Source: Bacillales bacterium UBA5578 (GTDB taxonomy: Bacteria > Bacillota_I > Bacilli_A > RF39 > UBA660). From it: a stretch of 56,994 bases of DNA. The DNA lies in NCBI GenBank assembly GCA_002425325.1, contig DIMA01000018.1, positions 74,259 through 131,252 of the forward strand. Reading direction: 5' to 3'. The first letter of the stretch is position 1; each line of letters opens with the position of its first letter. Below the pieces are notes generated by a model that saw only the letters and a program-made list of their open reading frames with translations, was not told where the DNA came from and searched no databases. Below, one piece after another: positions 5,915 through 43,199 of this stretch. The translations under genes were made by a program, and so were the position numbers.

Positions 5915-6259
5915 ATGAATTTAAAGATTGAAAGATTAAATAATACGTTAATGCGTGAAATTAGTATGATATTAATGCAAGAAGTAAAAGATCCTAATTG
6001 TAAATTTGTTACTATAACAGCAGTTAGAACAACTTCTGATTTAAGTTATACTAAAATTTATGTTACTACTTTAAAAGATGAGTTTAGAAAAGAAACCATG
6101 AAAGCATTAAAAAATGCTAGTGGTTTTATTAGAAGAGAATTAGCTAATCGTATTGAAGTAAGACATATACCTCAATTAGAATTTGTTTATGATGAATCTA
6201 TTGAATATGGTAAGAAGATAGAAGATAAAATTAGAGAGATACATAATGAAGATAAATAG
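5915..6259 (+). CDS. rbfA: 30S ribosome-binding factor A
   Basis: VTITAVRTTSDLSYTKIY, ASGFIRREL, RHIPQLEFVYDESIEYG. Confidence 0.96.
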   Translation: MNLKIERLNNTLMREISMILMQEVKDPNCKFVTITAVRTTSDLSYTKIYVTTLKDEFRKETMKALKNASGFIRRELANRIEVRHIPQLEFVYDESIEYGKKIEDKIREIHNEDK

Positions 6260-6284
6260 TTTTTTACTATTTATCTTTTTTTTT
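6250..6284 (+). terminator. Intrinsic terminator of the rimP-rbfA operon
   Basis: agataaatagt-ttttt-actatttatct plus T run; stop TAG in the 5' arm. Confidence 0.85.
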
Positions 6285-6314
6285 GATATAATAATATAGA
6301 TAGGAGGAATAAAA

Positions 6315-7220
6315 ATGGATGGAAATCAAAATGTTTATAATGTAGAACAACCAATGTATAATCAACCAGAGCCAAAGAAAAAATCTTCATTACCTATAAT
6401 ATTATTAGTTGTTGTATTAATAGGTGCTGGATTAGCAGGAGGATATTTTTTAGGAAGTAAAAATAAAGAAGATAAAACAACTAAGAAAGATGAAAAAAAG
6501 ATAGAAGTATCTAAAGAAAAATTAGACGAATTATTAGATAATAGTTATTATTCTTCTTTAACAGGTCATGATATTGTTGAAAGAGGATTAAATGAGAACT
6601 CTAAATTTGCTTTAGTTTTTCATAAATTAGAACAAGATGAAACAAAATTAAATAAAATTGAAATAGCATCATTATATGGTAAAGATGCAAATGTAAAAGT
6701 AGAAACGTTTGAAGGCGAAAAAGAATATATTTTTGATATTACAATTGATGGAGATGAGTATTATATTGATGATGCATCATATTATTCGTATGAAGATGTA
6801 AATAAAATATATAAAACATTATTTAATGAGGAAGCACCAAAAAAATCTAATAGTGGAGATGCTACATATTATTATTGTAGTGCTGTAGATGGTTATATTA
6901 AACCATCATTAGGAATTGGGGCTTTATTTAATCCTATACCAATTCATGCAGTAAAAGATTATAGTGTTGATGGTAATAAATTAACTATTAATGTATATCA
7001 TGCAACTTATGATTTTGAAACATCAGTTGATGATAGCGATAATGTTACTATTACAATGGATAATGATAATTCAATAAAATATACATTAACTAATGATGAA
7101 AATGTATATAAAACAATTACAGATGATATGTTAAAAAATCATAAAGATAAATTAGATATAGTTAAGTTTATTTATACTATAGACGGAGATAACTATTATT
7201 TAACAGAAATAAAAAAGTAG
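6315..7220 (+). CDS. Hypothetical single-pass membrane-anchored extracellular protein
   Basis: N/Q/P-rich N-terminus, KKK, one hydrophobic helix, then an acidic soluble domain; RBS aggagg. Confidence 0.75.
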   Translation: MDGNQNVYNVEQPMYNQPEPKKKSSLPIILLVVVLIGAGLAGGYFLGSKNKEDKTTKKDEKKIEVSKEKLDELLDNSYYSSLTGHDIVERGLNENSKFALVFHKLEQDETKLNKIEIASLYGKDANVKVETFEGEKEYIFDITIDGDEYYIDDASYYSYEDVNKIYKTLFNEEAPKKSNSGDATYYYCSAVDGYIKPSLGIGALFNPIPIHAVKDYSVDGNKLTINVYHATYDFETSVDDSDNVTITMDNDNSIKYTLTNDENVYKTITDDMLKNHKDKLDIVKFIYTIDGDNYYLTEIKK

Positions 7221-7237
7221 ATTTATAATCTACTTTT
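7213..7237. terminator. Bidirectional terminator overlapping both convergent stop codons
   Basis: aaaagtagatt-tat-aatctactttt. Confidence 0.8.
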
Positions 7238-8186
7238 AATTTGCTTCTTTATAGAACTCTTTATTATAATTATGTTCGATTGTATCTAATTTTAATAATC
7301 TTTCACTATCAATTAAGAAGTAATCTCTTAGAAGTATTTGACTACCTGTGCTAGTAACTGGATCATCCCATGTAGCATCTAAGTGTAACCATTTATCTTC
7401 TAATCTTATTAAATTCCAAACATGTTTATCAGCAGATATTCTTATATTTGGAATACTTAATCTATGAATATATATTGCCATAATATCACTATAACCACCA
7501 CATAAAGAAACATGATTTTTTAATAATCCTTTAGCGGTATGACTTTCACTATCTTTATACTTATCACTATTCATATTATTAGCTCTTGCTTTATCATAAA
7601 CAGTAGTTTTTATAATATAATCATGAAATGTTTGTATTTTTAATTTAGGTGTCATATCTTCTGTTATTATAGCTTTATTAATCTTATCTATTTCTTGATT
7701 TATATATTTTATATCTTCAATAGAATATTGTTTATTTACTTTAATAATAACTTTACCATAATTATTCATTACAACAGTTAATTTTTTGTATGAATTAAAT
7801 GGGTGTACTAAATTATTTATATCTGATAATACATCATATTCAATATCATTATTATCACTAGGTATTAATTTATCTATATCTTCAGTACATGTTTTATATT
7901 TATCTGAACAATAGAAATAAAATTCTTCTTGTCCACTATCTAATATAGTATAAATAATATTTAATAAGTGTTGATAGTCTCTAGCAACAAAATCACTAGT
8001 TATTTGTACATATTTATAATCTCTATTAAGAGAATATTCATTCTTGTCTATTTCTATAGTAGCATTTTTATTGTATATATAATTGTTTACAATGTATGTT
8101 GTAATCTTTTCATTATATACAGCTACTAGAATAACTAGAATAGTAAATAATATATTTATAATTGTACGACTCTTGATTTTCCTCAT
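7236..8186 (-). CDS. Membrane-anchored transglutaminase-like (Cys-His-Asp) domain protein
   Basis: N-terminal TM; SLCGGYS, KHVWNLI, WLHLDATWDD triad. Confidence 0.85.
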   Translation of the reverse strand: MRKIKSRTIINILFTILVILVAVYNEKITTYIVNNYIYNKNATIEIDKNEYSLNRDYKYVQITSDFVARDYQHLLNIIYTILDSGQEEFYFYCSDKYKTCTEDIDKLIPSDNNDIEYDVLSDINNLVHPFNSYKKLTVVMNNYGKVIIKVNKQYSIEDIKYINQEIDKINKAIITEDMTPKLKIQTFHDYIIKTTVYDKARANNMNSDKYKDSESHTAKGLLKNHVSLCGGYSDIMAIYIHRLSIPNIRISADKHVWNLIRLEDKWLHLDATWDDPVTSTGSQILLRDYFLIDSERLLKLDTIEHNYNKEFYKEAN

Positions 8187-8238
8187 ATACTATCACCAAT
8201 TTTATTGTATCATAGATAAATAAAAAAATGGAGTAATT

Positions 8239-8502
8239 TTACTCCATTTCATTAATTTTTTTTGTTAATCTAGATTTGTTACGAGCGCAAGTATTTTTGC
8301 TAATAACACCATTTTTTACAGCTTTATCAATATTTTTAATAGCAACTTTTAAGCAATCTGTTGCTTCTTTTTTATCATTATTTGCTACAGCTTTTTCAAC
8401 TTTCTTAATAGAATTTTTCATAGTAGCAGCATATTGGTTATTAATAACTTCTTTTTTAGCGTTAACTAAAATTCTTTTTTCAGCATTCTTCATGTTTGCC
8501 AT
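8239..8502 (-). CDS. rpsT: 30S ribosomal protein S20 (start moved to 8502)
   Basis: MANMKNAEKR..., IDKAVKNGVISKNTCARNKSRL; RBS gaggtg on the minus strand. Confidence 0.95.
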   Translation of the reverse strand: MANMKNAEKRILVNAKKEVINNQYAATMKNSIKKVEKAVANNDKKEATDCLKVAIKNIDKAVKNGVISKNTCARNKSRLTKKINEME

Positions 8503-8602
8503 AATATTCACCTCCGCCTCACATACATACATATTTTAGCAAATATTAATTAAAAAAGCAAATAAAATAAGACATTTTGTGAAAAATATTAATGGTGATT
8601 AA

Positions 8603-9484
8603 ATGAAACATGAAGTAGATTTACAAAAATATTCTATTTATACTGATTTAGCATTAGAGTCTATTAAAATAAACAAAATAAATAAATATGATAAAAAAAG
8701 TATAAAATATAAAGATGTTAATGTAACAAAATTATTTGTTGATAAAAAATTAAGCAAAAAAATAAATAAAAAAGAGGGAAACTATACAACGATAGAATTT
8801 AACGATATTACTGATTCACTTAATCAAAATAGATTAATTAAAGTATTAAAAAATGAGTTAAGTAAATTTATAAATGTAAGTAAAAAGGATTTAATATTAA
8901 TTGTTGGTTTAGGTAACGAACAATCAACACCAGATTCATTAGGACCTAAATGTATTGATAATATTATATCTACTAATCAATTATATGATTTAAATATATT
9001 AGATAATAATCATTATAGAGTAGCTACATTTAAGCCAAGTGTATATGGTAGAACAGGTATAGAAACATCAGATATAATTATAAGTATTTGTAAGAAAATA
9101 AAACCTAGTTTAGTAATTATTATTGATTCATTAGCTAGTGGTTCTATTGATAGATTAAATAAGACAATTCAAATAACTGATACTGGAATATCACCTGGTA
9201 GTGGTATTGGAAATAAAAGAAAAGAAATATCTAACAAATCATTAAATACTAATGTATTAGCACTAGGAGTTCCTACAGTAGTATCTGAATATAATATTTT
9301 ATATGAAATATTAGTTAATAATGATTTAGATACTAATAGTATATTAGATTATGTTATAAATAATGACAAATATAATTTAGTTGTTACACCTACAGAAATA
9401 GATTTTATAATAGATTGTTTAAGTAAAGTTATTTATACATCATTAAATGAATTATTTAGTGATAAAATAAGTAAATCTAAATAA
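8603..9484 (+). CDS. gpr: GPR endopeptidase (spore germination protease)
   Basis: YTDLALE, LIVGLGNEQSTPDSLGP, GRTGIET, IIIDSLAS, IQITDTGISPGSGIGNKR; divergent from rpsT as in Bacillus. Confidence 0.92.
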   Translation: MKHEVDLQKYSIYTDLALESIKINKINKYDKKSIKYKDVNVTKLFVDKKLSKKINKKEGNYTTIEFNDITDSLNQNRLIKVLKNELSKFINVSKKDLILIVGLGNEQSTPDSLGPKCIDNIISTNQLYDLNILDNNHYRVATFKPSVYGRTGIETSDIIISICKKIKPSLVIIIDSLASGSIDRLNKTIQITDTGISPGSGIGNKRKEISNKSLNTNVLALGVPTVVSEYNILYEILVNNDLDTNSILDYVINNDKYNLVVTPTEIDFIIDCLSKVIYTSLNELFSDKISKSK

Positions 9485-28827: not shown

Positions 28828-29061
28828 ATGAAAGATACATTAGTTGTAAAAGGTCTTGATGGAAATGATATTACATTATTTGTAATAGATATAATTGAAG
28901 ATACTATGACAAATAAACAATATATGTATTATACAATTGATGGAAATGATGATGTTTTTGTTTCAGGTTTAGTTGAAAATAATGGTACTTATTCTTTAGA
29001 ACAAGTATCAGAAGAAGAAAAAAATATTCTAATTGAAGCTTTAAAAGATGGAAGAAATTAG
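28828..29061 (+). CDS. Small acidic protein, DUF1292-like (start moved to 28828)
   Basis: RBS aggaga before ATG 28828; LVVKGLDGNDITLFVIDII..KQYMYY pattern. Confidence 0.6.
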   Translation: MKDTLVVKGLDGNDITLFVIDIIEDTMTNKQYMYYTIDGNDDVFVSGLVENNGTYSLEQVSEEEKNILIEALKDGRN

Positions 29062-30691
29062 TAATTTAAATGAGGTATTTAGATATTTATCTAATGATAA
29101 TATATTAGAAAGAATATCTAAAATAACTAATGATAGTGACATTGATGTTAAAGAAATGTCATCTAGATTATTAAAAGAACTAACTGAAAGAAAAAAACAA
29201 TTAGAAAATATTAAAGAAAAAATAATATCTGTAAACAAAGCATTAAAAGATTCAACATCAGGAGAACTACTCGCAAAAATAGATGATGAGATAAGTTCAA
29301 TAGATAAAATAAGTGATTCTCTTAATAGTATGATAAACGGGGATATACCATTTAGTCAAAGTAATTTATTACAAACAGGCGAAGAAGTAAATAAACTATT
29401 CGATTTAGAAGCAAGTTTACAAAATACTGTTGAATCTTCTACTAATGAGTATAAAGATTATATTACTAAAATGGTAGAAAATGATCCTTCTAAATTAGAA
29501 GAATTAAGAGATTTAGCTAATCGACAACAAGTAGATGACCAATTAGAAGAAGATATTGAAGATACTATTGAAGCAGTAGAAGAATCTAAAGATGATAATG
29601 TAGTAGAAATAAGCGAAGAAGAGGTAGTTGTAACTGATACTCAATCAGATGGTGCTACTGATATTGAAGCTGAAGAAGAATTTATAGTAGTAGATGAAAC
29701 ACCTAATTCTGAAGGAAATAATGATACTACTGAAGATACTACAGATGCTGATGAACAAGTTGAAGAAGATTTAGAAGAAGAAATAATAATAGATAATGCT
29801 AATAATGAGCAAATTGATGTTATAGAAAATCGCGAAAATGGAGTAGAGGAAAATACTGAAAATCTTGCAAAAGATAATGCCGGACAACAAGTTCGACAAC
29901 CAATTAGTACTGAGCAAAATTCCATGAAGAATAAAAAGGGTAAAAATAATTTAAGTTATAGCGAAAGAGTTAGAAACATCAATTATAGACAAGGCATGAA
30001 CTATAGTGAAGAAGTTCACAAAATAAGAGTTGAATATGAAATAGAATTAATAGAATCAAGATTAAATCTTGTAAATAAAGAAATTAAGAAATTAAAAGAC
30101 TCTAATAAAAAAGTTCCTTTTAAATTAGCTGTTCAACAACAACAATTATTAAATCAAATTAACGAATTAAAGAATGAAACTCAGTTAATTGAGTTGAATC
30201 GTAAAGAGAATAAGAGAGAAGAAAAACTTTCTAAAACTCAAGCAAAAATCGATCAACAAGTTGGAAAATTAACAGATGAGATGATTATTCAAAATGAAGT
30301 TAAAAGTAAATTATTTAAAGGCATGTCTTTAAGACGTGAGAAAAAAATAAGAGAAAAACTTGTAGAGTTAAATGGTAAAATGAATGTTGTTAAACAAGAA
30401 CAAATTACTTCTACTGAAATGAAATTCGATATAAGAAATAAAAAATTAATTAAATTAGCTAAAAAGAATGCTAAAAAGCAAGTAATGCAACAAAAAATTG
30501 AAGAACTTAAATCATATAGAGATAAATTAGTTGAAGAAGCTATGGCTTTAGGACATGATATTTCAAGATTTGTAAGCAAATCAGAACTAATACAAAAATT
30601 AAAACAATCTACTGTTCAATTTACTGGTAATCCTGTTATTATCGATATGCCAGAGGAAGAGTTAGAAACATCTATGGTAAGAGCTGCATAA
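29048..30691 (+). CDS. Hypothetical 547-aa protein with acidic low-complexity core and basic coiled-coil C-terminus
   Basis: Long ORF with genome-typical codon usage; no TM or catalytic motif; own terminator. Confidence 0.75.
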   Translation: MEEISNLNEVFRYLSNDNILERISKITNDSDIDVKEMSSRLLKELTERKKQLENIKEKIISVNKALKDSTSGELLAKIDDEISSIDKISDSLNSMINGDIPFSQSNLLQTGEEVNKLFDLEASLQNTVESSTNEYKDYITKMVENDPSKLEELRDLANRQQVDDQLEEDIEDTIEAVEESKDDNVVEISEEEVVVTDTQSDGATDIEAEEEFIVVDETPNSEGNNDTTEDTTDADEQVEEDLEEEIIIDNANNEQIDVIENRENGVEENTENLAKDNAGQQVRQPISTEQNSMKNKKGKNNLSYSERVRNINYRQGMNYSEEVHKIRVEYEIELIESRLNLVNKEIKKLKDSNKKVPFKLAVQQQQLLNQINELKNETQLIELNRKENKREEKLSKTQAKIDQQVGKLTDEMIIQNEVKSKLFKGMSLRREKKIREKLVELNGKMNVVKQEQITSTEMKFDIRNKKLIKLAKKNAKKQVMQQKIEELKSYRDKLVEEAMALGHDISRFVSKSELIQKLKQSTVQFTGNPVIIDMPEEELETSMVRAA

Positions 30692-33987: not shown

Positions 33988-34090
33988 TAATTCTTTTTTT
34001 TTGTCGTATTTTGGTTATAAATAAATACTTTATTTTTTATTATAAATATGTTAAAATTGTAGTAGATTTATGCTAAGGAGGATAGCAATT

Positions 34091-34519
34091 ATGGGATTAA
34101 TGAATAAACTATTTGATGGAAATGAAGAAAAAGATATTTTTGAAGATAATGGAAAACAATTTGAGGATCAATATTATGAATCTTCAAAAGATTTAAAAGC
34201 AGATGATATTAATGGTAAAGATGGATCTAAAATGATTTTATTAGAGCCACGTGCATTTTCAGAAGCTCAACAAATTACAGATCAATTAAAAAGAAGAAAT
34301 ACTGTAGTTATTAATTTAAAAAGAGTAACTTCTGAACAAGCAAAAAGAATTATTGACTTTGCTTCAGGATCAACATATGCCTTAAAAGGAAAAATTGAAA
34401 AAATTGGTAGTGGAATTTTCTTATGTACTCCAAATAATATCAATATTCAAGGTAAAATATCTAGTGATAAAGATGATAATGATACTTATGATAATGATGA
34501 TATAGAAATTGATATTTAA
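34091..34519 (+). CDS. sepF: Cell division protein SepF (start moved to 34091)
   Basis: LLEPRAFSEAQQITDQLK, VVINL, RIIDFASGSTYALKGKIEKIG..FLCTPNNI. Confidence 0.93.
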   Translation: MGLMNKLFDGNEEKDIFEDNGKQFEDQYYESSKDLKADDINGKDGSKMILLEPRAFSEAQQITDQLKRRNTVVINLKRVTSEQAKRIIDFASGSTYALKGKIEKIGSGIFLCTPNNINIQGKISSDKDDNDTYDNDDIEIDI

Positions 34520-34576: not shown

Positions 34577-34999
34577 ATGGAAAAGTTTACTACAACACTT
34601 CGTGGTTATGATAAAGAAGAAGTAAATGAATTTATTGATAAAATTATTGCTCGTATTGAATCAATGGTAACAGAAATTGATGATAAAGATAAAGAAATAT
34701 CTAATCTAAAAAATAAAATAGATGAATTAGAAAAGTACGTTGAAAAATTAAAAAATCAAAGTATGAATGATATGGAAATATCTCAAGATATTATTAAGAA
34801 AGCTAAAGATGAAAGCGAAAAAATAATTAAAGATGCAAATTTAAATGCAGATATTATAATTAACGAATGTCTTATGAAAGCTAAAAAGTATGAGATTAAA
34901 GTTAATAAATATAAAAATGATTTAAAGTTATTAAAGCAGAAGAAGGAGACGTTACTTAGCGGAACTAATAGAGAGTCTATGGTTGGTGGAAATAGATAG
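34577..34999 (+). CDS. divIVA: DivIVA domain protein
   Basis: FTTTLRGYDKEEVNEFIDKI plus coiled coil; sepF-divIVA-ileS synteny. Confidence 0.88.
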   Translation: MEKFTTTLRGYDKEEVNEFIDKIIARIESMVTEIDDKDKEISNLKNKIDELEKYVEKLKNQSMNDMEISQDIIKKAKDESEKIIKDANLNADIIINECLMKAKKYEIKVNKYKNDLKLLKQKKETLLSGTNRESMVGGNR

Positions 35000-35127
35000 G
35001 GAAACTTAGTAAGAATCACTCTGGATGTGTTATTACCGGTTACGCGTTATAGTATTAAGTGCATAATAGTATTATGAATTAGGGTGGTACCGCGATTATT
35101 CGTCCCTAAAACATAATACTTTTTTTA
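34936..35127 (+). ncRNA. T-box riboswitch leader (Ile, specifier AUC) of ileS
   Basis: AGAGAG bulge, tctat/ataga stem with GGTG loop, specifier ATC at 35015-17, Stem III, T-box aattAGGGTGGTACCGCG (35077-94), antiterminator 3' strand CGTCCCT. Confidence 0.92.
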
Positions 35128-35147
35128 TTTATTAGAGGAGGTTTATT

Positions 35148-38100
35148 ATGAAATTTGAAGAATTAGATAAAGAACAAGTAAGTAAAGTTGAACGTAAGAT
35201 ATTAGATAAATGGTTAAAAGATGATATCTTAAATAAAACTATTGAAAATAGAAATGGTAAAGATAACTTTGTTTTCTATGATGGACCAGCAACAGCAAAT
35301 GGAATGCCTGGATTACATCATATGTTAGCAAAATTTTTAAAAGATTCATTCTGTAAATATCAAACTATGAAGGGTAGTAGAGTTCTTAGAAAAATAGGAT
35401 GGGATACTCATGGGTTACCAGTAGAAGTTAATGTAGAAAAGAAATTAGGTTTCTCAGGTAAAAGTGATATTGAAAAATATGGAATTAAAGAATTTAATGC
35501 TTTATGTAAAGAAACAGTTTGGGATAATGAAAATGCTTTTAGAAAATTAACAGAAGAAATGGGACAATTTATCGACTTAGATAATAGATATATTACATAT
35601 GATAATGATTATATTGAAACTGAGTGGTGGATATTAAAGAAATTCTTTGATGAAGGTTTATTCTATGAAGGAGTTAAGATATTACCATGGTGTCCTAGAT
35701 GTGGAACAGGATTAGCTTCACATGAAGTAGCTCAAGGTTATAAAGAAATAGATGCTAATACTGTTACAGTTCCATTTAAGAAGAAAGATGAGGATGTTTA
35801 TTTCTTAGTATGGACAACTACACCTTGGACATTAATTAGTAATGTTGCATTATGTGTTAACCCTAAAGAAACTTATGTTAAAGTTGAATCTAAAGGATAT
35901 AAATTTATCTTAGCTGAAGCATTAGCGCAAGCTAATTTAGGTGAAGAATATGAAGTATTAGAAACATATAAAGGTATTGATCTAGAAAATATGGAATATG
36001 AACAATTAATTCCATCATTAAAAGTAGATAAAAAAGCTTTTATTGTTACTTGTGATGATTATGTTACTATGTCAGATGGTACTGGTATTGTTCATATCGC
36101 ACCTGCATTTGGTGAAGATGATGCTAAGGTAGGTAGAAAATATAATTTACCATATTTAAATCCTGTAAATGAAGATGCTACATATAATGATGGATTATGG
36201 AAAGGCATGAATATCTTTGATGCAGATTTAGAAGTAATTAAATATTTAAAAGAAAATGATAAATTATTTAAAAAGCAAAAAGTTAAACATGATTATCCAC
36301 ATTGTTGGAGATGTAATTCACCATTAGTATATTATTCAAGACCTTCATATTATTTAGAAGTTACTAAGTTACAAGATAAAATAATAGAAGAAAATAAAAA
36401 AGTAAATTGGTTCCCATCATACGTTGGAGAAAAGAGATTTGGAAATTGGTTAGAAAATATGAATGATTGGGCTATTTCTCGTAATAGATATTGGGGAACA
36501 CCACTTCCATTATGGAGATGTTCTTGTGGACATATGGAAATGATTGGTTCTAGAGAAGAATTAAAAGAAAAAGCAATAGAAGAAGTAGATCCTGCAACAA
36601 TAGATTTACATAGACCATTTGTTGATGATGTACATATTGAATGTCCACATTGTAAAGAAAAAATGACAAGAGTACCAGAAGTAATCGATTGTTGGTTTGA
36701 TAGTGGAGCTATGCCATTTGCTCAATACCATTATCCATTTGAAAATAAAGAGTTATGGGAAGAACAATATCCTGCTGACTTTATAGCAGAAGGAATTGAC
36801 CAAACTAGAGGATGGTTCTATTCATTAATAGTAATTGGTGTATTCTTAACTGGTAAGAGCCCATATAAAAATGTATTAGTTAATGAATTATTATTAGATA
36901 AATATGGTCATAAAATGCATAAGAGTAAAGGAAATGCTATTGAACCATTTACTACTATGGAAAAATATGGAGCTGATACAATAAGATTCTATTTAGCTTA
37001 TGTATCACCAACATGGACACCATTAAAATTTGATGAAGAAGGATTAAAAGAAGTTCATTCTAAATTCTTTAATCCATTAAAGAATACTTATTCTTTCTTC
37101 CAAACATATGCAAATATCGATAATATTGATATAAAAGAATGTATGGTAAAAGAAAGTGATAGAGAAGAAATAGATAGATGGTTATTAAGTAAATACAATA
37201 AATTAATTGATAATTGTACTAAAGCATATGACAAATATGATTTAAATGAAGTAGTTAAATTAGCTACAACATTTGTATCAGATGATTTATCAAATTGGTA
37301 TATTAGAAGAAATAGAAATAGATTCTGGTCATCAGAGTTAGATAATTCTAAGAAGAGTGTATATATAACTACATATGAAGTATTAGAAGGAATTTGTAGA
37401 TTAATTGCGCCAATTGTACCATTTGTAACAGAAGAAATATATACTAAATTAACAGGAAATGAATCAGTTCATTTAGCTGATTTCCCTGTAGTAAATAGCG
37501 AATTAATTAATGAAGATATAGAAGTTCGTATGGACTTAGTAAGAGATTTAATTAGTTTAGGAAGAAATATTCGTGAAGAAGTTAAAATTAAGGTTAGACA
37601 ACCAATTAGTGAATGTTTAATTGATGGTAAAAATGAATCTATTATTAGTGATTTAACTCCATTAATTGAAGAAGAATTAAATGTTAAAACAGTTACATTT
37701 ATAAGTGAATTAGAACAATATATGAATTTAACTGTTAAACCAAACTTCAAAGAAGTTGGACGAGTATTTGGACCAAAGATTAAAGTATTCCAAGAAAATT
37801 TATTAGCTTTACCAATGAGTGATATTAAAACATTACAAAATAGTGGTTCTATAAAAATGGATATTGATGGTGAAGAATATGAAGTTACATCTTCAATGGT
37901 TGAAATTAAAACAAGTTCAAAAGAAGGATTTGACGTTGCTACAGATACAACAAACTTCGTTATATTAAAAACTGAATTAACAGAAGAATTAATATTAGAA
38001 GGTATTGCTCGTGAAGTAGTAAGTAAAGTTCAAAATTTAAGAAAGACTAGTGGTTTTGAAATAGCTGATAGAATAAATTTATACTATAGAGCTGATGAAT

Positions 38101-38243
38101 TAGCTACTAAAGCAATAAATGAATATAAAGAATTTATTATGAATGAAACTTTAACTGTTAATTTAGAAGAAAGTGATAAAGCAACAGAAGAAGTTGATTT
38201 AAATGGACATGAAGGATTCTTTACAGTAGAAAAAGCAAATTAA
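35148..38243 (+). CDS. ileS: Isoleucine--tRNA ligase, type 2 (IleRS2) with GLHH motif
   Basis: 1031 aa; YDGPATANGMPGLHH, GWDTHGLPVE, WTTTPWTL, DQTRGWF, KMHKS; type 2 C-terminus EGIAREVVSKVQNLRK. Confidence 0.97.
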   Translation: MKFEELDKEQVSKVERKILDKWLKDDILNKTIENRNGKDNFVFYDGPATANGMPGLHHMLAKFLKDSFCKYQTMKGSRVLRKIGWDTHGLPVEVNVEKKLGFSGKSDIEKYGIKEFNALCKETVWDNENAFRKLTEEMGQFIDLDNRYITYDNDYIETEWWILKKFFDEGLFYEGVKILPWCPRCGTGLASHEVAQGYKEIDANTVTVPFKKKDEDVYFLVWTTTPWTLISNVALCVNPKETYVKVESKGYKFILAEALAQANLGEEYEVLETYKGIDLENMEYEQLIPSLKVDKKAFIVTCDDYVTMSDGTGIVHIAPAFGEDDAKVGRKYNLPYLNPVNEDATYNDGLWKGMNIFDADLEVIKYLKENDKLFKKQKVKHDYPHCWRCNSPLVYYSRPSYYLEVTKLQDKIIEENKKVNWFPSYVGEKRFGNWLENMNDWAISRNRYWGTPLPLWRCSCGHMEMIGSREELKEKAIEEVDPATIDLHRPFVDDVHIECPHCKEKMTRVPEVIDCWFDSGAMPFAQYHYPFENKELWEEQYPADFIAEGIDQTRGWFYSLIVIGVFLTGKSPYKNVLVNELLLDKYGHKMHKSKGNAIEPFTTMEKYGADTIRFYLAYVSPTWTPLKFDEEGLKEVHSKFFNPLKNTYSFFQTYANIDNIDIKECMVKESDREEIDRWLLSKYNKLIDNCTKAYDKYDLNEVVKLATTFVSDDLSNWYIRRNRNRFWSSELDNSKKSVYITTYEVLEGICRLIAPIVPFVTEEIYTKLTGNESVHLADFPVVNSELINEDIEVRMDLVRDLISLGRNIREEVKIKVRQPISECLIDGKNESIISDLTPLIEEELNVKTVTFISELEQYMNLTVKPNFKEVGRVFGPKIKVFQENLLALPMSDIKTLQNSGSIKMDIDGEEYEVTSSMVEIKTSSKEGFDVATDTTNFVILKTELTEELILEGIAREVVSKVQNLRKTSGFEIADRINLYYRADELATKAINEYKEFIMNETLTVNLEESDKATEEVDLNGHEGFFTVEKAN

Positions 38244-38258: not shown

Positions 38259-38307
38259 TATATACTTTTGGTAATATATACACTTAATGAAAAAGGGGGA
38301 TTTTATA

Positions 38308-39438
38308 ATGGAGAAAGAGAGAACAAAATTACCTTTATTAGTTGATGATAAACCATTATATGTAATTGGTGATGATATAAAAGCAAAAAGTGAAGAATTA
38401 GAACAATTTTTAGAGGGAATGCCTTATATGAATAGTAAGATGTTTTCAAAAAATGTATTATATTCTCACGAAATACAAGCAAATAATAACATTGAAGGTT
38501 ATAGTGATGATGTAGATTTAATTGATAGTATTATTTTAAGAAAGAAAAATATATCTGATGAAGCTAGAAGATTAAGAATTATTAACTTATATAATGGATA
38601 TAGATATATATTAAATAATAAAGAAATAAATAAAGATAATTTAAAAGAATTATATAGATTATTATCTGATGGATTATTAGATGAAGAAGATAAAGTTAAT
38701 ATGGGTGAATATTATAGAAATGAACCTGTTTATATATTCTTTTCTGATAGATTAGATGTTGAACCTGATAAAGGTGTAGATCCAGAACGTGTAGAAGAAT
38801 ATATGAATATATTATTTGATTATATTAATTCAGATAATGAAAATTTAAGTGCTACTGAAAAGTTTATAAAATCTCAAATTATGCATTTTTACTTTGTATA
38901 TATACATCCATATTTTGATATAAATGGACGTACAAGTAGAACTACAGCTATGTGGTATTTATTAAATCAAAAAGATTATCCTTTTATTATATTTAATAGA
39001 GCTATTCAAATGCATAAAAATGAATATTATAAAGTAATAAGAGATGTTAAAAAATTTAAAAATGTAAGTTTCTTTTTAAACTATATGTTAAATAATGTTC
39101 ATTTTGAATTAGAAAAAGAACATTTTATGGAAGTTATTAATCAAAATACACCAGAAGTATTAACAAGTACTGATTATCAAACAATGAGTTATATTTTATC
39201 AATGAGAAGTACTTTAACATATTCTGATTTTGCACAATTTTATAATTTAAGAAATGAAAAGAAAAATAAACTTACTATATATAATGAAATGTTATTACCT
39301 TTAGTAGAAAAAGGTATAATTATAGAAAAAGATTTTACTAGAAGAGGTTTTAGTGGAGTTCATCAAAATAGATTTTTTGAACTTAATAAAGCATTATATG
39401 ATGATGATCCTGCTAAAATCAAATTATTAAATATATAA
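38308..39438 (+). CDS. Fic family protein with N-terminal autoinhibitory-type motif (class II-like)
   Basis: HPYFDINGRTSR (variant of HxFxDGNGRxxR); NNNIEG motif near the N-terminus. Confidence 0.88.
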   Translation: MEKERTKLPLLVDDKPLYVIGDDIKAKSEELEQFLEGMPYMNSKMFSKNVLYSHEIQANNNIEGYSDDVDLIDSIILRKKNISDEARRLRIINLYNGYRYILNNKEINKDNLKELYRLLSDGLLDEEDKVNMGEYYRNEPVYIFFSDRLDVEPDKGVDPERVEEYMNILFDYINSDNENLSATEKFIKSQIMHFYFVYIHPYFDINGRTSRTTAMWYLLNQKDYPFIIFNRAIQMHKNEYYKVIRDVKKFKNVSFFLNYMLNNVHFELEKEHFMEVINQNTPEVLTSTDYQTMSYILSMRSTLTYSDFAQFYNLRNEKKNKLTIYNEMLLPLVEKGIIIEKDFTRRGFSGVHQNRFFELNKALYDDDPAKIKLLNI

Positions 39439-42716: not shown

Positions 42717-43199
42717 ATGAAAAAGATAAAATTCGTAGGATTTAAGAAAATAAAAGTAATTGGACCTAAATATAAATTAATATTTAATAATAGTCATAGT
42801 GTTAGAACTAAAAAAGGAACAATTAGAAATATATCAAATTATTTTAAACATTTAAAAAATGGTATTAAGCCTTTAGATAAATCAAAAAAACAATTAGCAT
42901 TAGTTAGATTAATAGATTGTTATGATTATTCATATTCTAAAGCATTTTTTAAAAGAAATATACCTACAATTATAGATTCAACACTATTAGATTGTGAAGA
43001 GTTTAATTTATGGTTAAAGAATATTACTCCATCATTAAATAAATATGGTGTAAATATTAAATATATAACAGATGATTTACATTTATTGTATACAAGTAAT
43101 GTAGTATTAGTAGATGAAATGAATAAAAAAGAAACAAAACCAAAACATAAAGCAAAAATTTATAATTTTTCAGATTATAGTAGACTTAAGAATTCTTAA
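42717..43199 (+). CDS. Hypothetical basic protein
   Basis: RBS gaggt, own promoter and palindromic end; no motif recognised. Confidence 0.7.
   Translation: MKKIKFVGFKKIKVIGPKYKLIFNNSHSVRTKKGTIRNISNYFKHLKNGIKPLDKSKKQLALVRLIDCYDYSYSKAFFKRNIPTIIDSTLLDCEEFNLWLKNITPSLNKYGVNIKYITDDLHLLYTSNVVLVDEMNKKETKPKHKAKIYNFSDYSRLKNS

Follow-up and report, generated by a model that had tools for sequence, protein, structure and literature searches.

The window analysed here, a stretch of 56,994 nucleotides, comes from the metagenome-assembled genome (MAG) of Bacillales bacterium UBA5578 (GCA_002425325.1, contig DIMA01000018.1) and carries ileS2, the gene of a type 2 isoleucyl-tRNA synthetase (IleRS2) which serves as the housekeeping IleRS of its host, an uncultured gut member of the Bacilli with a reduced genome. 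The enzyme has a swapped class I signature motif, and its gene lies behind an isoleucine T-box leader in a chromosomal slot which related genera fill with either a type 1 (ileS1) or a type 2 gene. The coding sequence (CDS) and its diagnostic elements are as follows.

35148-38243, + strand: ileS2 CDS, 1031 aa, matching TIGR00392, with P. megaterium IleRS2 as its best PDB matches
35310-35321, + strand: GLHH (G55-L-H-H58), the swapped class I signature motif in place of HxGH, aligning to GVHH/HVGH of P. megaterium IleRS2
36912-36926, + strand: KMHKS (K589-M-H-K-S593), a variant KMSKS loop with Ser changed to His at position 3 (codon CAT)
37662-38234, + strand: DUF5915, the type 2 C-terminal domain (Pfam PF19302, E = 2.3e-52, residues 839-1029)

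The window protein scored 932.2 bits against TIGR00392, the ileS equivalog model (cut-off 621.4), and Pfam recognised the class I catalytic domain, an anticodon-binding domain, and DUF5915, the last of which is absent in the IleRS1 proteins of related family genomes. In the PDB ranking by HMMER, the top match was 8c8w, an engineered GVHH mutant of P. megaterium IleRS2 (942 bits), followed by the wild-type enzyme 8c8u (937 bits) and by the T. thermophilus IleRS 1ile (792 bits). Eukaryotic cytoplasmic IleRS chains reached 574-674 bits and a further bacterial IleRS chain, 8wnf, 283 bits, while the IleRS1 structures of P. megaterium (397 bits) and S. aureus (380 bits) scored far lower than the type 2 enzymes. 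Trees split the window protein from IleRS1 with 100% support. The translation shows intact copies of the threonine-rich editing motif VWTTTPWT, the GTGIVHIAPAFGEDD block, and the zinc-knuckle cysteine pairs. The models of the plasmid-borne resistance enzymes MupA and MupB (NCBIfam NF000257 and NF000258) aligned over their full length at 900.9 and 877 bits, less than half of the 1900-bit cut-offs of these exception models, indicating that the window protein is neither MupA nor MupB. An earlier note on this DNA, made from the letters alone, had named the gene an IleRS2 with a type 2 C-terminus and had proposed a phylogeny against both types as a check; the PDB ranking, the full-length MupA/MupB alignments, DUF5915, and the trees agree with it. 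The note had also read GLHH for HxGH and KMHKS for KMSKS, and both motifs are found exactly where it placed them, the former in the open reading frame (ORF) translation and the PDB alignment, the latter in the ORF translation.

Residues 46-59 of the protein read GPATANGMPGLHHM, and 35292-35324 encodes TANGMPGLHHM. In the HMMER alignment, GLHH falls column for column on GVHH of 8c8w and HVGH of 8c8u, indicating a true swap of motif positions 1 and 3 rather than a shift in the alignment. G[LI]HH together with KMHKS is found in each of the 120 database proteins closest to the window protein (77-100% identical), so that neither an error in sequencing nor a mutation private to this genome can account for the motifs. 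Every IleRS2 examined had G[LIV]HH, whether it came from the window's family, from G025 (a second family of the order), or from G030 (a neighbouring family); the GxHH trait is thus common to the family's IleRS2 proteins and not special to the window genome. Among 151 diverse IleRS2 sequences (150 library representatives plus the window's own protein), G/AxHH occurred in 68, with GLHH in the same motif column, and G/AXHH had been reported in 86 of 163 sampled IleRS2 and in no IleRS1 (Brkic et al., 2023; PMC10485003). To find the swap in a housekeeping IleRS2 is therefore neither new nor uncommon, and about half of known IleRS2 share it. In a FastTree phylogeny of diverse IleRS2, which gives local support values only, the window clade was sister (96%) to Bacilli IleRS2 with the canonical HxGH motif, indicating that the swap arose separately inside the Bacilli IleRS2 clade.

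The G/AXHH motif raises the inhibition constant (Ki) for mupirocin up to about 1000-fold, and IleRS1 cannot tolerate it (Brkic et al., 2023; PMC10485003). The IleRS2 of D. radiodurans, with a natural ALHH, has a mupirocin Ki of 6.6 mM, which fell 823-fold on reversion to HVGH, while the engineered GVHH motif raised the Ki of the T. thermophilus and P. megaterium IleRS2 by factors of about 175 and about 430, respectively (PMC10485003). The price of the engineered GVHH was up to 10-fold in kcat and KM, whereas natural G/AXHH enzymes show normal kcat/KM (PMC10485003). The earlier note had cited the hyper-resistance of the GxHH subgroup as biochemically established, and the shifts of mupirocin Ki upon motif exchange bear this out (PMC10485003). 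By homology to the enzymes of Brkic et al. (2023), the window enzyme is predicted to be hyper-resistant to mupirocin.

The ileS2 gene stands in a row of genes, running polC, a surface protein gene, a predicted ORF without assigned function, dnaE, sepF, divIVA, ileS, fic, a sigma factor gene (minus strand), recD2, a second such ORF, lspA, and rluD, of which the following anchor the locus.

34070-34519, + strand: sepF (Pfam SepF, E = 8e-28), lying 5' of ileS in nearly all family loci
34577-34999, + strand: divIVA (Pfam DivIVA, E = 1.5e-18), its 3' end overlapping the T-box Stem I
38287-39438: Fic/DOC-domain gene, 43 nt after the ileS2 stop codon
43247-44595, + strand: lspA-rluD (Pfam Peptidase_A8 and PseudoU_synth_2), the downstream anchors of the ancestral ileS locus

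The divIVA-ileS arrangement is kept for type 1 and type 2 ileS alike. While fic, the sigma factor gene, and recD2 stand between ileS and lspA-rluD in the window, lspA-rluD lies directly 3' of ileS2 in G030, where the order is a compact sepF-divIVA-ileS2-lspA-rluD, and directly 3' of ileS1 at the locus L038. The window neighbourhood would match the order divIVA-ileS-lspA-rluD of B. subtilis. No integrase, transposase, or plasmid genes were found among the ileS neighbours in the window, and GC content climbs smoothly, from 20-25% to 28-29%, over the conserved ileS CDS. With housekeeping neighbours and no compositional jump, a recent horizontal arrival of ileS2 is unsupported, and the native, unmobilised divIVA-ileS position described in the earlier note stands. 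A whole-genome search returned a single ileS, all other matches being ValRS, LeuRS, and MetRS, so that the second copy which the same note had suggested looking for was not found in the window assembly (1.2 Mb, 33 contigs, 91% estimated completeness). Two ileS genes were likewise seen in no genome of the order in a 41-genome survey, nor in any of the 36 family genomes within a 300-genome survey of the class. The Fic/DOC gene after ileS2 is kept there in at least seven congeners (52-60% identity). Pfam returned nothing at E <= 0.01 for two window ORFs, 29048-30688 (547 aa) and 42717-43196 (160 aa).

The less ordinary part of the locus is that related genera hold a type 1 or a type 2 gene in exactly this one chromosomal slot. 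In the class survey, seven family genomes from six genera have IleRS1 only (G041, G122, G239, G176, G267, G295, and G316). A comparison of the slot, which covered all of these but G295, found ileS1 in the sepF-divIVA slot in five (G041, G122, G176, G239, and G316), followed in G176 and G239 by the same sigma factor gene as in the window; the ileS1 locus of G267 has no sepF or divIVA nearby. Species trees were built from RpoB (46 genomes) and PolC (21 genomes, bootstrapped), several of the trees in this work being built with quick methods and all genomes being MAGs. In both species trees, the IleRS1 genera occupy several separate positions among IleRS2 genera, G267 (type 1) being sister to G023 (type 2) with support 100/99, and a single IleRS1 clade was rejected by approximately unbiased (AU) tests (p = 1e-27 for RpoB and p = 3e-55 for PolC). 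On these marker trees, the type of the ileS slot requires at least five to seven changes of state.

The gene trees add a conflict within each type. The IleRS1 proteins of the family are monophyletic and adjoin families f8 and f9, as the organismal tree predicts, and the IleRS2 proteins of the family are monophyletic as well. However, the IleRS2 proteins of the window's genus (g1) fall into two distant clades, one with KMHKS, to which the window protein belongs, and one with KMSKS/PAFANGFPGLHH, which nests with genera g24 and g50, and the AU test rejected g1 monophyly (p = 1.5e-9). The IleRS2 proteins of genus g33 are also split (AU p = 1e-64), as are those of g43 on the tree. On the IleRS1 tree, G267 and G316 are sisters (100/100), whereas PolC and RpoB set them apart. 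In several family genomes, PolC and ileS lie on one contig, which argues against binning artefacts. The T-box leaders behave differently from the coding sequences, their similarity tracking the species and not the CDS type. The leader of G122, which precedes an ileS1, is 72-75% identical to family ileS2 leaders and 47-58% identical to ileS1 leaders outside the family, and between G005, which has the KMHKS allele, and G001 and G002, which have the other, leader identity is 81-85%. The shared slot, the mosaic trees, and the species-tracking leaders together give the pattern of homeoalleles and support an old in-situ displacement of type 1 by type 2, in a slot which has changed hands at least five to seven times; the proposal of the earlier note that IleRS2 displaced IleRS1 in situ is thus supported by genera within the family that have ileS1 in the identical sepF-divIVA slot. 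We propose that a type 2 gene replaced the type 1 gene in situ deep in the window lineage, and that family members would since then have swapped the contents of the slot again and again, ileS1 for ileS2 or the reverse and one ileS2 allele for another, with the T-box leader left in position. Recombination would be the probable route of replacement.

The leader itself is a T-box, as the earlier note had claimed, and was recognised by its Rfam match and its isoleucine specifier.

34931-35110, + strand: T-box leader, a tRNA-Ile-sensing riboswitch (Rfam RF00230, 102.9 bits against a gathering threshold of 93, E = 2.5e-22, full model 1-219)
35015-35017, + strand: specifier codon AUC (Ile), followed by A and the closing helix, read from the sequence
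35134-35141, + strand: Shine-Dalgarno sequence AGAGGAGG, 6 nt before the ATG, read from the sequence

AUC-A recurs at the specifier position of 16 related leaders, among them leaders of both ileS types. When charged tRNA-Ile is scarce, uncharged tRNA-Ile(GAU) would pair with the AUC specifier and with the T-box bulge, and this pairing would allow read-through and expression of ileS2. In the minimum-energy fold, 35071-35076 pairs with 35112-35117 in a long-range helix around the antiterminator, next to which a run of seven U follows (35120-35126). This run can also pair with the Shine-Dalgarno sequence. The same long-range geometry is seen in the congeners L017, L011, L015, and L014, and ordinary terminators are seen in more distant relatives. 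Stem I (34931-34999) overlaps the last ~70 nt of the divIVA frame, the ORF tail ending in SGTNRESMVGGNR being translated conserved T-box, which indicates either that the leader promoter lies within divIVA or that the leader is transcribed by read-through from divIVA. A CYTH-domain gene (Pfam PF01928, E = 8e-9; L011 954-1496) lies between the Ile T-box and ileS2 in L011 and also in L025, L015, and L014, so that in those species of the window's genus the T-box controls an extra gene. An acetyltransferase-like ORF occupies this position in L020 and a 330-aa membrane protein in L031.

His at the third position of KMSKS is rare, being present in 3 of the 151 diverse IleRS2-like sequences, and the intact KMHKS occurs only in the window's own. 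Two of the three have the swapped signature motif and one has the canonical motif, so a general coupling of the KMSKS His with the swap is unsupported, and a literature search for the KMHKS variant in synthetases found nothing. On the family IleRS2 tree, KMHKS appears in four separate clades (g1-H, G246 with G139, G260 with G169, and G183), a distribution which needs at least four changes, and a single KMHKS clade was rejected by the AU test (p = 0.008, the group being defined after the tree was seen). Each change from AGT or TCN to CAY takes two substitutions, and intermediate residues were not seen, which hints that the recurrence may reflect selection or small-scale gene conversion. In IleRS2, closure of the KMSKS loop brings it near the HXGH helix, and the cleft left between loop and helix has to take up the nonanoic tail of mupirocin (PMC10485003). 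By analogy, a His in the loop might plausibly affect both catalysis and inhibitor binding. It is conceivable, if rather doubtful in our judgement, that the ileS slot is a long-lived polymorphism in which IleRS1, several IleRS2 alleles, and the recurrent KMHKS are exchanged among relatives under fluctuating selection by natural IleRS inhibitors of the gut; the KMSKS-loop His would then be an adaptive second-site change in the cleft of the mupirocin tail, either restoring the efficiency lost to GxHH or widening the exclusion of inhibitors.

The named relatives are MAGs from the guts of ruminants, rabbits, mice, humans, and chickens, with labels such as Bacilli, Tenericutes, Mollicutes, and Erysipelotrichaceae, 'Candidatus Aphodocola excrementigallinarum' being among the named MAGs with a close IleRS2. 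In G100, a member of family f6, the sole ileS (L044 4977-8387) is a GIHH IleRS2 of the window clade (59% identity), which has its own T-box and lies outside the sepF-divIVA context; it looks like a transfer out of the window's family. G248, of another Bacilli family, encodes a divergent IleRS2-like protein (L049, about 5944-9054; 36% identity) with GMHH and with SRFSKT for KMSKS; a Fic-like gene adjoins it, and no other ileS-like match in that genome reached E <= 1e-55. An in-frame TGA interrupts the accessory IleRS2 of G110 (L045), several in-frame stops occur in ileS2 and rpoB of G025 (L032), and polC of G008 and G021 is also interrupted; these may be assembly errors or pseudogenes.

Taken together, the best joint explanation, to which we give a probability of roughly 0.85, is that the window gene is a sole housekeeping IleRS2 under an Ile T-box in the ancestral slot, intrinsically hyper-resistant through GLHH, and installed by in-situ replacement with later exchange. 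The enzyme would activate and transfer isoleucine with editing, like any IleRS. His57 of GLHH would take over the transition-state contact normally made by the first His of HIGH, and the bulk of the third-position His would clash sterically with mupirocin and so exclude the inhibitor. By analogy with Brkic et al. (2023), a Ki two to three orders of magnitude above that of canonical IleRS2 is expected. Resistance would then be a by-product of the housekeeping enzyme, intrinsic and chromosomal, with no mobile determinant. Several points weigh against this explanation. The species trees rest on two single proteins, RpoB and PolC. Sliding-window nucleotide identity between congeners is only about 65-75% throughout, a divergence too great for recombination breakpoints to be located at the nucleotide level. 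The MAG has an estimated completeness of 91%, so a second ileS might formally be missing from it. A pattern scan after the window T-box found no canonical intrinsic terminator, and the switching mechanism of the leader is thus uncertain. The effect on Ki in the characterised enzymes ranged from about 175- to 820-fold, and engineered swaps came at a price of as much as 10-fold in kcat and KM, so that the magnitude predicted by analogy for the window enzyme is uncertain.

How the mosaic arose could be explained in another way, by an ancestor that held both genes, for example in tandem in the slot, and by differential loss rather than repeated transfer. This model is the classical alternative discussed for homeoalleles (PMC3191353), and it fits well with the monophyly of the family IleRS1 and of the family IleRS2 and with the position of the former next to f8 and f9, as vertical descent predicts. 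We nevertheless consider it unlikely, because both genes are kept in no sampled genome of the order and family surveys, the gene trees within each type conflict with the species trees (p = 1.5e-9 for g1 and 1e-64 for g33), the sister relationship of the G267 and G316 IleRS1 runs against their PolC and RpoB placement, and at least five to seven state changes are needed. That the window gene is an accessory resistance paralogue, with a housekeeping ileS1 hidden in the unassembled ~9% of a genome in 33 contigs, might be suggested by the larger Bacilli genomes G110 and G146, which carry both types. But in G110 it is ileS1 that holds the slot while the type 2 copy is elsewhere, whereas the window gene occupies the native slot behind the Ile T-box; with no second ileS in the whole-genome search and no double among the order survey or the 36 family genomes, we reject this possibility as extremely improbable.

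As to function, GLHH might be a neutral lineage marker, leaving mupirocin affinity no lower than in HxGH IleRS2 and resistance at the ordinary IleRS2 level. The structural basis of hyper-resistance has been modelled, not observed, and no simple determinant was found for the accommodation of the motif by IleRS2 (PMC10485003); in addition, the mupirocin exposure of a gut anaerobe is not obvious. On the other hand, swaps in both directions in three IleRS2 shifted the Ki about 175- to 820-fold (PMC10485003), and one of these three, that of P. megaterium, is the closest solved relative of the window protein, which makes neutrality quite improbable to our mind. We give hardly any credence to the idea that GLHH and KMHKS mark a catalytically impaired enzyme or one changed in function. 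Both class I signature motifs are indeed off consensus, and the loop His is as rare as described above, but the gene is the only ileS found in the genome, the motif pair recurs without exception in the 120 closest database proteins, the motifs of the editing domain and of the zinc knuckles are intact in the translation, and natural G/AXHH enzymes have normal kcat/KM (PMC10485003). We therefore retain the sole, intrinsically resistant housekeeping IleRS2 as the best account of the locus.

If this account is true, a whole family of uncultured gut Bacilli would be intrinsically insensitive to mupirocin-type IleRS inhibitors by way of its housekeeping enzyme. The window enzyme would be nature's own version of the GVHH mutant made from P. 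megaterium IleRS2 and could reveal how the ~10-fold catalytic cost seen in that mutant is escaped. The family, in which sister genera carry either type behind the same T-box leader, would also be a natural setting in which to test cleanly whether, as has been proposed, IleRS1 gains speed at the price of sensitivity and IleRS2 gains resistance at the price of speed. In Bacillaceae, by contrast with the window's family, ileS2 was reported never to occur alone (bioRxiv 10.1101/2022.02.09.479832). The clinical relevance is probably low, the gene being chromosomal and without mobile flanks, yet G100, outside the family, carries a copy of the clade elsewhere in its genome.

Among known systems, MupA and MupB of staphylococci share the type 2 IleRS architecture with the window enzyme, but they are plasmid-borne, whereas the window ileS2 is chromosomal, at a native locus, and without mobile flanks. 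The natural G/AXHH enzymes of D. radiodurans (ALHH) and Streptomyces griseus, whose mupirocin Ki is in the millimolar range, are like the window enzyme of type 2, with a swapped motif and a housekeeping role (PMC10485003); the window enzyme differs from them in its lineage, in the separate origin of its swap, in KMHKS, and in its T-box regulation. The closest solved relative, P. megaterium IleRS2 (8c8u and 8c8w), has the same domain layout including the C-terminal domain, but its natural motif is HVGH and it is a stress-induced accessory enzyme beside a mandatory IleRS1, while the window enzyme stands alone in its genome, in the slot of ileS1, and its swap is a natural one. The comparison loci of Bacilli in which a T-box leads ileS1, with ylmH and a DivIVA-like gene or ftsZ upstream and, in L038, lspA-rluD directly downstream, have the neighbourhood, leader type, and AUC specifier in common with the window; the CDS in the window is type 2 instead of type 1, and the leader in the window's genus lacks a canonical terminator. 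Homeoalleles of aminoacyl-tRNA synthetases are known for TyrRS, ThrRS, SerRS, and LeuRS (Andam, Gogarten and co-workers; PMC3191353, PMC3436685), and the pattern includes replacement within a conserved syntenic context (PMC3191353). We found no paper describing IleRS1/IleRS2 homeoalleles in a family of gut Bacilli. The likeness to the known cases lies in two divergent isofunctional forms, about 30% identical, which occur one per genome in the same synteny, and in a distribution and within-type trees of ileS1 and ileS2 that conflict with the species tree. Unlike the known homeoalleles, the pair is IleRS1 and IleRS2, the hosts are uncultured gut Bacilli, the two forms are predicted to differ in drug resistance, and both stand behind a shared T-box leader.

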